In this document: positions 27,307 through 28,971 of the stretch, in pieces
How the letters are laid out: every line of letters begins with the position of its first letter
How positions within the stretch are numbered: the stretch's first letter is position 1
NCBI GenBank assembly: GCA_963774745.1
Contig: CAVZGE010000011.1
Location: 44,766-76,765 of the forward strand
DNA from: an uncultured Actinomycetes bacterium
Lineage (GTDB): Bacteria; Actinomycetota; Actinomycetes; S36-B12; CAIYMF01
Length of the DNA: 32,000 bases
Direction of reading: 5' to 3'
The notes under the pieces: generated by a model
Databases searched by the model: none
What the model was told of the DNA's origin: nothing
Seen by the model: only the letters and a program-made list of their open reading frames with translations
Made by a program: the position numbers and the translations under genes

Positions 27307-27312
27307 TAGGGT
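27307..27312 (+). promoter_or_regulatory. -10 box (TAGGGT) placed for a leaderless transcript of the HipA-like kinase gene
   Basis: TAGGGT-ccttcgc-GTG: TANNNT exactly 7 nt before GTG 27320, with no SD. It lies in the 162-nt divergent gap shared with pglX, which also holds the 8-bp palindrome CCACGTGG (~27237-27244). Confidence 0.35.
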
Positions 27313-27319
27313 CCTTCGC

Positions 27320-28168
27320 GTGACCGTGCCGCCCATCCCTGTCGTCGACGTGTCGGGCTGGTCGCCCCTGGAGGAGGCGGAGGAACCACTCGGTGCGCGC
27401 AAGAAGATGTGGATGTCCCCCGGCGATCCATCGGATGCCTGGCTCTGGAAGTCGGGTCGGGAGGCAGCGCTCCTGCCGGAACCGGGAGCCGACCTCTGGG
27501 CTGAAGTGATCGCTGCCCGGGTAGCGCCACTGCTCGGTGTGCCCGCTGCCGAGACCCGCCTCGCGGCTTGGGATGACTTGCACGGGATCGTCAGCCGCCG
27601 GGTCGCTGAGGACCTCGTCCACGGCAACGAGTTGCTCTCGGGCAAAGACCCGGCGTACGAGTTCGAGCGCACGGGGCTGGTCCCCGGCTATGACCTGCGC
27701 GGAATCGAAAGGGCCCTGGAGGGGTATCAGGGAGCCGAGCCTGGGCTGACGGCCTTCGAGTCGTTCGTGGGGCTGCTGATGTTCGACGGCCTGATCAGCA
27801 ATACCGACCGGCATCATGAGAACTGGGCGGTCATCGGGAGCCTTGGCATGCTGGCCCCCAGTTTCGATCACGGCGCCTCCCTCGGCTTCAACGTCCCGCC
27901 CGCGCGACGCATCGACCTCGCGCGGGTCGCCCGTGGCGGCCGCGCACGCCACTTCCCGGGCAAGCCGACGCCTGTGGACCTGGCCCTCAGCGCTCTGGGC
28001 GCAGTTCGGCCCGAGGTCCGCGACCTTTGGATCACACGGGTCCAGGAGTTGGACCTCGCTACCATCGAGACAGTCGTGCGCTCGCTGCCCACCGAGTGGA
28101 TGTCAGAGGGCGCCCGTACCTTTGTCATGGAGTTGCTGCGCGAGAACCGAAGGAGGCTCCTGGCATGA
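27320..28168 (+). CDS. HipA-family Ser/Thr kinase, catalytic core only (HipT-like)
   Basis: 282 aa from GTG 27320 (GTG 27326 is also possible). The catalytic loop LISNTDRHHENWAV fits the D-x-H-x-x-N pattern of HipA, and a downstream LAPSFDHGASLG provides the Mg-binding-type Asp. The N-terminal EEPLGARKKMWM resembles the HipA-like G-x-K-x-K-x-W nucleotide-loop region. No HipA N-terminal subdomain is present. The stop overlaps the next start (ATGA, 28165-28168). The portion of track ORF 26675..28168 upstream of 27320 is antisense to pglX and Arg/Pro-rich. Confidence 0.7.
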   Translation: MTVPPIPVVDVSGWSPLEEAEEPLGARKKMWMSPGDPSDAWLWKSGREAALLPEPGADLWAEVIAARVAPLLGVPAAETRLAAWDDLHGIVSRRVAEDLVHGNELLSGKDPAYEFERTGLVPGYDLRGIERALEGYQGAEPGLTAFESFVGLLMFDGLISNTDRHHENWAVIGSLGMLAPSFDHGASLGFNVPPARRIDLARVARGGRARHFPGKPTPVDLALSALGAVRPEVRDLWITRVQELDLATIETVVRSLPTEWMSEGARTFVMELLRENRRRLLA

Positions 28169-28932
28169 CTGCTACCGCTCTGGAGGGCCACCTACCCGAC
28201 CTCGCTGCCCCGGAGTGCTTCATGGTCCTGTGGCAGGACCCGCAGACGCGTCTGCACCTACGGGTCGGGACCTTGAGCCGGGTCGGCGGGGAATACGCGT
28301 TTCACTACGAGCGCACCCTCCCTCCCGGATTCCCGGGGTTCCCCAGCTTCCCCGACGTGGAGCAGGAGTACCGCTCCCCGCATCTGTTCCCCTTGTTTGC
28401 CAACCGGGTGATGACGCCGCGGCGTGAGGGGTACGCGCACTACCTGCACTCACTCGGCCTGGCTGGCGAGAGCGCCGATCCGTTCGAGGTCCTAGCCCGA
28501 ACCCTGGGCGCTCGAGCGACTGATCGCGTTCAGGTCGTGCCCATTCCGAACCTCACACCCGACGGCGTCGTGTCCTTCCGGTTCCTGGTGCATGGATGGC
28601 GATATGTGGACCCCCATGCTGAGCGCCTGCGCCATGTCCGCCCCGGCGACCGGCTGGAGCTGGTGCCTGAGCCCGGCAATGAGGTTTCGGAGCGCGCCGT
28701 GCTGGTCGGCCCCGAAAGCACTCGGAGTCGCGACGACGCGCTCGGCTACGTTCCCGACGCGCTGACGCCGCTGATCCATGAGTTGTGGCGAGTGAACGCC
28801 GTGTACCGGGTCACGGCCGAGCATGTGAACCTGCCGGGCACATCCTCGGTTGCCGACCGGATGCGCCTACTCGCCCGCCTGGATGCGCTGTGCCCGGAAG
28901 GCACGGAACCGACATCGGTGCTGGGCCGCTGA
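28165..28932 (+). CDS. HipA-N-terminal-like (HipS-like) domain fused to a HIRAN domain
   Basis: 255 aa from ATG 28165, with SD GAAGGAGG 9 nt upstream. N-terminal segments align by eye to E. coli HipA residues ~10-110: RVGTLSRVGGEYAFHYERTL, HLFPLFANRVMTPRREGY and DPFEVLARTLGARATDRVQVVP. The C-terminal half fits the HIRAN pattern (FRFLVHGWRYVD..VRPGDRLELVPEPGNEVSERAVLV..ALGYVPDALTPLIHEL). Confidence 0.65.
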   Translation: MTATALEGHLPDLAAPECFMVLWQDPQTRLHLRVGTLSRVGGEYAFHYERTLPPGFPGFPSFPDVEQEYRSPHLFPLFANRVMTPRREGYAHYLHSLGLAGESADPFEVLARTLGARATDRVQVVPIPNLTPDGVVSFRFLVHGWRYVDPHAERLRHVRPGDRLELVPEPGNEVSERAVLVGPESTRSRDDALGYVPDALTPLIHELWRVNAVYRVTAEHVNLPGTSSVADRMRLLARLDALCPEGTEPTSVLGR

Positions 28933-28936
28933 GCGA

Positions 28937-28971
28937 GCTATTCCGACTTGGTGACTCCAAGTCGGAATAGC
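28937..28971. terminator. perfect 15-bp hairpin between the convergent HIRAN gene and pglW
   Basis: GCTATTCCGACTTGG-tgact-CCAAGTCGGAATAGC. It starts 5 nt after the HIRAN-gene stop and ends 32 nt before the pglW stop (TAA 29003-29005). The stem is unusually AT-rich for this sequence and there is no U-tract. Confidence 0.55.

Follow-up and report, generated by a model that had tools for sequence, protein, structure and literature searches.

Two-gene modules of the hipIN type were defined by Gerdes, Baerentsen and Brodersen (mBio 2021, PMC8262856) as a gene for a short kinase, HipI, followed by one for HipN, in which a HipS-like domain is joined to a HIRAN domain. The published hypothesis is that HIRAN recognizes phage DNA ends or replication intermediates, upon which the kinase becomes active and infection is aborted; the toxicity of HipI and its neutralization by HipN are predictions in that paper, too (PMC8262856). 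Such pairs also have a PADLOC name, PDC-M03, a phage defense candidate in PADLOC-DB v2 derived from cassettes embedded in BREX, DISARM, and restriction-modification loci (Payne, Hughes, Fineran and Jackson 2024, bioRxiv 10.1101/2024.01.29.577857). PDC-M03 corresponds to cassette CAS_00033, for which the supplementary table lists the number 684 (an occurrence count, in our reading), and it is a candidate outside the seven systems validated in that study (10.1101/2024.01.29.577857). Here we describe a hipI-hipN pair in a 32,000-nucleotide window (the whole stretch of DNA that was analyzed) from an uncultured Actinomycetes bacterium (contig CAVZGE010000011.1, positions 44,766 to 76,765). The pair lies antisense within a type 2 BREX (Pgl) locus, between pglX, which is divergent from hipI, and pglW, which is convergent on hipN. 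An earlier note on this DNA, made from the sequence alone, had proposed the pair as an undescribed abortive-infection module. The architecture, the names, the nesting in BREX, and the proposed mechanism are already known and in print, however, and the word undescribed falls, because the exact architecture, with the same gene order and the same hypothesis, is a named system (hipIN, PMC8262856; PDC-M03 in PADLOC), an outcome that the note had itself named beforehand as counting against it. The pair is an ordinary hipIN / PDC-M03 member, of a kind often nested inside bacterial defense loci. The two genes are arranged as follows, with the start/stop overlap and the position between pglW and pglX just as the earlier note had them.

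27320 to 28168, plus strand: hipI (gene 1), GTG start, 282 amino acids
28165 to 28932, plus strand: hipN (gene 2), ATG start, 255 amino acids
28165 to 28168, plus strand: ATGA overlap of hipI and hipN

We see no architectural difference between this pair and hipIN. HipI, at 282 amino acids, falls within the family range of 279 to 321 amino acids, is without N-subdomain 1, and carries the Gly-rich loop close to its N terminus; the product of the downstream gene combines HipS-like (N-terminal) and HIRAN (C-terminal) domains; the unit is bicistronic, with the kinase gene first and no gene for HipB or another helix-turn-helix (HTH) protein; and the host is actinobacterial, with the weak HIRAN DNA-binding motifs described for that group. 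Nor does anything set the pair apart from PDC-M03: the adjacent genes match PDC-M03A (E = 2e-74, residues 6 to 281 of 282 in HipI) and PDC-M03B (E = 3.2e-66, residues 19 to 250 of 255 in HipN) almost end to end, and the pair is embedded in BREX. Membership in hipIN / PDC-M03 is, in our estimation, nearly certain. Moreover, hipI and hipN are genes rather than chance open reading frames (ORFs), because of these PADLOC matches (E = 2e-74 and 3e-66) and because gene 2 is represented by 629 clusters of homologues.

Other HipA-related systems resemble the pair in part. HipL (Gerdes et al. 2021) has a core kinase plus HipS-like and HIRAN domains in the same order, but in one polypeptide from a monocistronic operon, whereas here two overlapping genes encode these parts, with the break following the kinase. 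HipBST is likewise a split HipA, in which the kinase lacks N-subdomain 1 and is neutralized by HipS, a separate small protein of that fold. In Escherichia coli O127, Haemophilus influenzae, and Legionella pneumophila, however, HipBST comprises three genes in the order hipB-hipS-hipT, with an HTH protein, HipB, and no HIRAN domain, whereas the present pair has two genes with the kinase first, no HipB or other HTH gene, and a HIRAN domain fused to the HipS-like domain. The pair is therefore not a HipBST system, a difference in gene order and in the missing HipB that had been pointed out earlier and that stands. It is not a classical HipBA system either, in which HipA has about 440 amino acids, including N-subdomain 1, and is accompanied by HipB; HipI has 282 amino acids and no Couple_hipA domain. 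For another HipA-like system of two genes, PDC-M66 / DS-6, a defense function is reported to have been validated by experiment.

HipI is, as judged from its sequence, a short Ser/Thr kinase of the HipA superfamily with intact catalytic motifs, and a putative toxin. It scores 30.9 bits against the Pfam HipA_C family (cutoff, 30.5) over residues 25 to 185, and the same Pfam search found no Couple_hipA match in gene 1; in NCBIfam, no model matched HipI or HipN. The motifs expected of such a kinase are these, among them the NTDRHHEN and FDHG that the earlier note had quoted.

HipI residues 22 to 31: Gly-rich loop, EEPLGARKKMW
HipI residues D163-RHHE-N168: catalytic loop, NTDRHHEN
HipI residues D183-H-G: Mg-binding motif, FDHG

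In an alignment of 38 HipI homologues, G25, K29, D163, R164, H165, N168, D183, H184, and G185 are invariant. The AlphaFold2 model of HipI (mean predicted local distance difference test score [pLDDT], 95.3) has the fold of HipA, HipT, and CtkA, without the HipA N-subdomain 1; Pfam, the homologue alignment, and AlphaFold2 with Foldseek thus all bear out the reading of gene 1 as a HipA-type kinase lacking that subdomain. Foldseek places CtkA first (E = 5e-12, TM score 0.75), then HipT and HipA, and a profile search of the Protein Data Bank (PDB) with HipI gave CtkA as the sole significant match (E = 1.6e-10, nearly full length). Among solved structures, CtkA of Helicobacter pylori (PDB 3akj, 3akk, and 3akl) is therefore closest to HipI by both profile and fold, and the DRHxxNW and FDxG motifs of the two proteins align. 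CtkA, the cell-translocating kinase, is described as a secreted pro-inflammatory kinase, and we know of no HipN-like partner for it. Its rank ahead of HipT and HipA by profile and by fold points to a shared short-kinase branch of the HipA superfamily for CtkA and HipI.

The second protein, HipN, joins a HipS-like domain to a HIRAN fold, as far as profiles and a structural model can tell, and is a putative antitoxin or regulator. Its two domains are placed as follows.

28213 to 28524, plus strand: HipS-like domain of HipN, approximately residues 17 to 120, corresponding to HipA N-subdomain 1
28525 to 28899, plus strand: HIRAN domain of HipN, approximately residues 121 to 245

Both assignments are borderline in Pfam, with 18.1 bits against Couple_hipA, below the curated cutoff of 22.5, and 24.7 bits against HIRAN, exactly equal to the cutoff, yet they stand, because a PDB profile search and AlphaFold2 with Foldseek support them independently. 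A HipN profile built from 35 homologues matched the HIRAN-like structure 3k2y best (E = 2.4e-6), followed by the HipS chains 7czo (E = 0.0048), 7ab3_B (E = 0.015), and 7ab4_B (within 0.005 to 0.015) and by the HIRAN domain of HLTF (E of about 0.04), with nothing else of note. The AlphaFold2 model (pLDDT, 90.6; predicted TM score, 0.87) gave Foldseek matches to the HLTF HIRAN domain (E = 2.5e-5, target-normalized TM score [TMt] 0.60 to 0.64) and 3k2y (TMt 0.74 to 0.76) and to the HipS chains 7vkb_B (TMt 0.81, root mean square deviation 2.5 Å), 7ab3_B (TMt 0.76), and 7czo; the matches beyond HIRAN and HipS were noise. The reading of gene 2 as HipS-like plus HIRAN is thus upheld, and the motifs quoted for it earlier (VGTLSRVGGEYAFHYE, LFPLFANRVMTP, DPFEVLARTLGARATDRV, VHGWRY, PGDRLELVPEPGNEVSERAVLV, and LGYVP) are all present.

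The pair is conserved across phyla. A full-library search found HipN homologues in 629 representatives of 50%-identity clusters (E <= 1e-30), nearly all of them of about 250 amino acids, and we surveyed the neighborhoods of 80 loci from representative genomes, 78 of which could be assessed for an upstream kinase gene. In at least 67 of these 78, the gene immediately upstream of the HipN homologue encodes a HipI-like kinase, and the paired loci span Actinomycetota, Acidimicrobiia, Sorangium, Planctomycetota, and cyanobacteria. No third gene, such as one for a deoxydinucleotide-specific nuclease, follows hipN in the window, and no same-strand downstream ORF recurs among 61 loci.

The genomic contexts of the relatives fit a mobile cassette associated with defense loci and mobile elements. 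In locus L082 the next gene after the cassette, which has 88% identity, is a SoFic gene (E = 5e-65) and not a BREX gene, and in L089 a Fic gene lies directly upstream of the pair. A Nanopelagicales metagenome-assembled genome (L087:3551-10273) has the pair, at 52% identity, between HmaA, an SNF2 helicase (E = 0), and HmaB, an adenine methylase (E = 2e-132). BrxHI is directly downstream in L026 and L054, and in L083, L084, and L086 the pair adjoins an integrase and a TrwC relaxase; homologues at 52 to 53% identity lie within an Hma system or on integrative elements. These contexts bear on whether the pair could be a dedicated accessory or regulator of the host BREX (Pgl) system, for example by modulating PglW or PglX. 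The pair sits exactly between pglW and pglX both here and in the sister locus L081, PglW and HipI are both kinases, and the adjacent pglX is degraded, all of which would suit such a role. The 88%-identical cassette adjoins SoFic and not BREX, however, the homologues at 52 to 53% identity are elsewhere, only about 3 of the 80 representative loci are near BREX genes, and the pair differs from the BREX genes in strand and in GC content at third codon positions (GC3); we consider a BREX accessory very improbable. A BREX-specific role for the pair was rejected for its relatives in Hma, SoFic-adjacent, and integrative-element contexts.

A sister locus is informative about the kinase. This locus, L081, is metagenomic and has the same order of pglX, hipI-hipN, and pglW at 82 to 87% nucleotide identity, and its hipN is intact (255 amino acids, 85% identity). 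Its hipI (L081:1090-1820) carries a 121-nucleotide out-of-frame deletion, corresponding to window positions 27794 to 27920, by which both the DRHHEN loop and the FDHG motif are gone. Loss of the kinase core with hipN kept fits the pattern expected of a toxic gene.

The signals around the pair suggest a self-contained unit. Those read from the sequence are listed here.

27307 to 27312, plus strand: -10-like hexamer TAGGGT, 7 nucleotides upstream of the hipI GTG
28150 to 28156, plus strand: strong Shine-Dalgarno sequence AAGGAGG of hipN, inside the 3' end of hipI, 8 nucleotides before the ATG
28937 to 28971, no strand assigned: hairpin with a perfect 15-bp stem, between the convergent stop codons of hipN and pglW

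Position 27307, given earlier as the start of the feature, is not a start codon, which is the GTG at 27320, but it is the first base of the -10-like hexamer. There is no Shine-Dalgarno sequence between this hexamer and the GTG, and the box is conserved as TAnnGT at an equal distance from the start codon (TACTGT in L081 and TAGTGT in L082, where the hipI start codon is ATG). It is plausible that the hipI transcript is leaderless, since a Shine-Dalgarno sequence is missing and a conserved -10-like box lies 7 nucleotides from the start. Immediately upstream of the box there is also a conserved block. The placement of the hipN Shine-Dalgarno sequence within the 3' end of hipI, together with the ATGA overlap, suggests that translation of the two genes is coupled. 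The hairpin (-37.5 kcal/mol, z = -5.05; 0 of 200 shuffled sequences fold as well) has no T-run and is a candidate bidirectional terminator; L082 has an imperfect copy after hipN, in front of another downstream gene, and L081 has none. Generic scans of 26900 to 29300 for sigma-70 promoters and intrinsic terminators returned neither a promoter nor a terminator, so the claim that the module has its own promoter and terminator comes down to the conserved box and the hairpin: both are there, the hairpin as a real structure, although the T-run is missing.

Composition likewise sets the pair apart. Its GC content of 0.68 compares with 0.736 as the mean of the window, and GC3 is 0.82 in hipI and 0.80 in hipN, against 0.94 to 0.97 in the BREX genes, in agreement with the lower GC content claimed before. 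Parts of pglX also dip to a GC content of 0.675, and a trivial effect was considered for the lower GC of the pair and rejected, the GC3 offset being clear. The GC3 offset, together with the box and the hairpin that accompany the pair in the different context of L082, supports the view, also taken by the earlier note, that hipI-hipN is an independently acquired, self-contained cassette of about 1.7 kbp in a defense locus.

Several of these features would also suit a plain toxin-antitoxin addiction module, which would stabilize mobile elements or defense islands by postsegregational killing without any phage sensing, with HIRAN in place of HipB as the autoregulator of the operon. HTH and HipB genes are missing from the cassette, the -10-like box is immediately preceded by a conserved block, relatives border on integrase and TrwC-relaxase elements, the toxin gene of L081 is decayed, and the translation signals would favor an excess of HipN. 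Known HIRAN domains, on the other hand, bind DNA ends and not operators (PMC8262856), and Hma, BREX, SoFic, and Old-like genes repeatedly enclose or flank the pair; it was for such embedding that it was chosen as a PADLOC candidate. We consider an addiction module the less probable explanation by a good measure, though one to be taken seriously, and we note that addiction and defense are not mutually exclusive.

By analogy with HipBST, with HipBA, and with the published hipIN hypothesis, the pair could act as follows. HipI would be a toxic kinase, which is set free when HIRAN perceives a phage-associated cue or when HipN is lost. Once freed, it would phosphorylate an essential translation factor, the target of the characterized HipA and HipT kinases being an aminoacyl-tRNA synthetase, and the infected cell would stop growing, such that the infection is aborted. 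We put the probability at roughly 0.7 that the pair is a hipIN-type two-gene kinase module, carried as a self-contained antisense cassette in BREX, that works by abortive infection as proposed; for the single proposition that it acts as an abortive-infection defense in the proposed way, the chances appear to us about even.

A number of points weigh against this reading. The searchable literature yielded no experimental test of hipIN, HipI, HipN, HipL, HIRAN-kinase defense, or PDC-M03, and for the Hip proteins only the 2021 phylogeny paper came up, so that toxicity, neutralization, target, trigger, and phage phenotype are all inferred. Neither Ser nor Thr is found in the Gly-rich loop of this HipI subclade (GAR and not GS/TK), and control by autophosphorylation in the manner of HipA and HipT is therefore not evident in it. 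BREX genes are nearby in few of the representative loci, as counted above, and the neighborhood survey itself is anecdotal, with no matched control, and is not an enrichment test. About 11 of the 78 assessable loci carry a HipN homologue without an adjacent kinase; the 1.4 kbp upstream contain neither a HipI-like gene nor a DRHxxN motif. The HIRAN domain of HipN departs from that of HLTF where it matters for sensing: in a hidden Markov model (HMM) alignment, in which 'DPNNPYDKNA...VGHLKK' of HLTF pairs with 'PEPGNEVSERA...LGYVPD' of HipN, Tyr93, Asp94, and His110 of HLTF are replaced by Val174, Ser175, and Tyr195. In HLTF, Tyr93 and Asp94 make contact with the 3' end of the DNA. The Asn of HLTF HIRAN is retained in the same alignment, and the Arg-Tyr of the GxRY motif (R146-Y147) appears to be retained as well, in a stretch outside the aligned region that was paired by eye. 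Actinobacterial HipN proteins lack most of the DNA-binding motifs of HLTF (Gerdes et al. 2021, PMC8262856). Sensing of DNA 3' ends in this actinobacterial clade is thus doubtful, given the substituted contact positions and what Gerdes et al. report of these motifs, and it is the weakest step of the proposed mechanism.

These substitutions lead to a variant in which HIRAN in this actinobacterial subclade of HipN senses something other than DNA ends, and the cassette forms a backup layer for when the host BREX is disabled. A cue other than DNA ends is proposed because the Tyr and Asp by which HLTF contacts the DNA 3' end have been lost from HipN, and the cue may be a protein made by the phage or a small product derived from nucleic acid, the latter because hipIN-like pairs adjoin deoxydinucleotide-specific nucleases in Actinobacteria (PMC11706625). 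A third of the actinobacterial genes for such nucleases adjoin HipA-plus-HIRAN (HipI) genes (Nucleic Acids Research 2025, PMC11706625). The backup idea is raised because BREX appears disabled here, pglX being frameshifted. We hold this variant, as a whole, to be unlikely, though if HIRAN does sense a cue other than DNA ends, the trigger logic would differ from that of the published hipIN hypothesis.

The loci that have a HipN homologue but no kinase gene raise another question, because with no kinase adjacent in about 11 of the 78, the HipS-HIRAN protein may also act alone or with other partners. One of them, L088 (8001-8798), has an Old/GajA-like ATPase, a HicA-like gene, and PDC-S01 as neighbors, and there are about 10 more (e.g., L005, L010, L011, L031, L050, L053, L056, L072, L073, and L079). 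HipN might, alternatively, supply the N-subdomain in trans and so complete a HipA-like kinase, with HIRAN targeting or activating it on a DNA-damage or replication-stress signal, in which case the pair would serve signaling and not be a toxin-antitoxin system at all. This would accommodate the kinase-less homologues, the structural equivalence of the HipS-like domain with HipA N-subdomain 1, and the tight translational coupling of hipI and hipN. HipS is an antitoxin in HipBST, however, the sole characterized split system, and the loss of the kinase core with retention of hipN in L081 fits a toxic kinase; moreover, the contexts are defense loci and mobile elements, not repair loci. A signaling kinase is in our judgment improbable, even more so than the variant with a different HIRAN cue.

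As a discovery the pair carries little weight, since PADLOC would label the locus automatically. What is new here is the recurrence of the box and hairpin cassette in other defense contexts, the sister locus L081 without a kinase core, and the roughly nine frameshifts in pglX. The remaining value for the hipIN family lies in a compact natural construct of about 1.7 kbp for a first functional test; it seems self-contained, in that it comprises a leaderless-type promoter, the kinase, its HipS-HIRAN partner, and the terminal hairpin. Concrete, testable hypotheses come from the substituted HIRAN pocket and from L081, the sister locus with a dead kinase.

The host locus has a complete type 2 BREX (Pgl) gene set by PADLOC profiles (pglW, pglX, pglY, pglZ, brxD, and brxHI), all on the minus strand, with the following coordinates.

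9337 to approximately 11420, minus strand: brxHI (PADLOC profile)
11430 to approximately 12730, minus strand: brxD (PADLOC profile)
12749 to 15682, minus strand: pglZ (PADLOC profile)
15786 to approximately 19385, minus strand: pglY (PADLOC profile)
approximately 23467 to 27157, minus strand: pglX, the BREX methyltransferase, as pieces of the PADLOC PglX profile in all three frames
29003 to beyond 31942, minus strand: pglW, the type 2 BREX Ser/Thr kinase (PADLOC PglW, E = 4.8e-262), with the ORF continuing toward the window end

The pglX gene is split into about 10 reading-frame segments, i.e., about nine frameshifts in 3.7 kbp, and a GC3 frame plot shows about nine frame changes in it as opposed to none in pglW, pglY, and brxHI. 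No interruption is seen in pglW, pglY, brxD, or brxHI, and the reading frame of pglZ stays open along its length; G or C homopolymers of 6 or more nucleotides are absent from the pglX region. The broken pglX may have decayed into a pseudogene, in which case BREX would lack its methylase, or the breaks may be an assembly artifact that affects pglX alone.

There is also a second antisense insertion in the BREX locus, at 21009 to 22364 on the plus strand between pglX and pglY, which encodes a 451-amino-acid protein with DUF222 and an HNH endonuclease domain. It has no PADLOC match, and we take it to resemble the actinobacterial 13E12-type mobile HNH family. Three minus-strand ORFs are embedded between pglX and pglY as well.

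19478 to 20653, minus strand: AAA_16/AAA_22 ATPase of 391 amino acids, directly upstream of pglY
20672 to 21844, minus strand: ORF of 390 amino acids, overlapping the plus-strand HNH gene
22898 to 23455, minus strand: ORF of 185 amino acids

Pfam gave no match to the 390- and 185-amino-acid ORFs, and PADLOC gave none to any of the three. The ORF at 20672 to 21844 may be spurious, and the three embedded genes may represent further candidates of this embedded kind.

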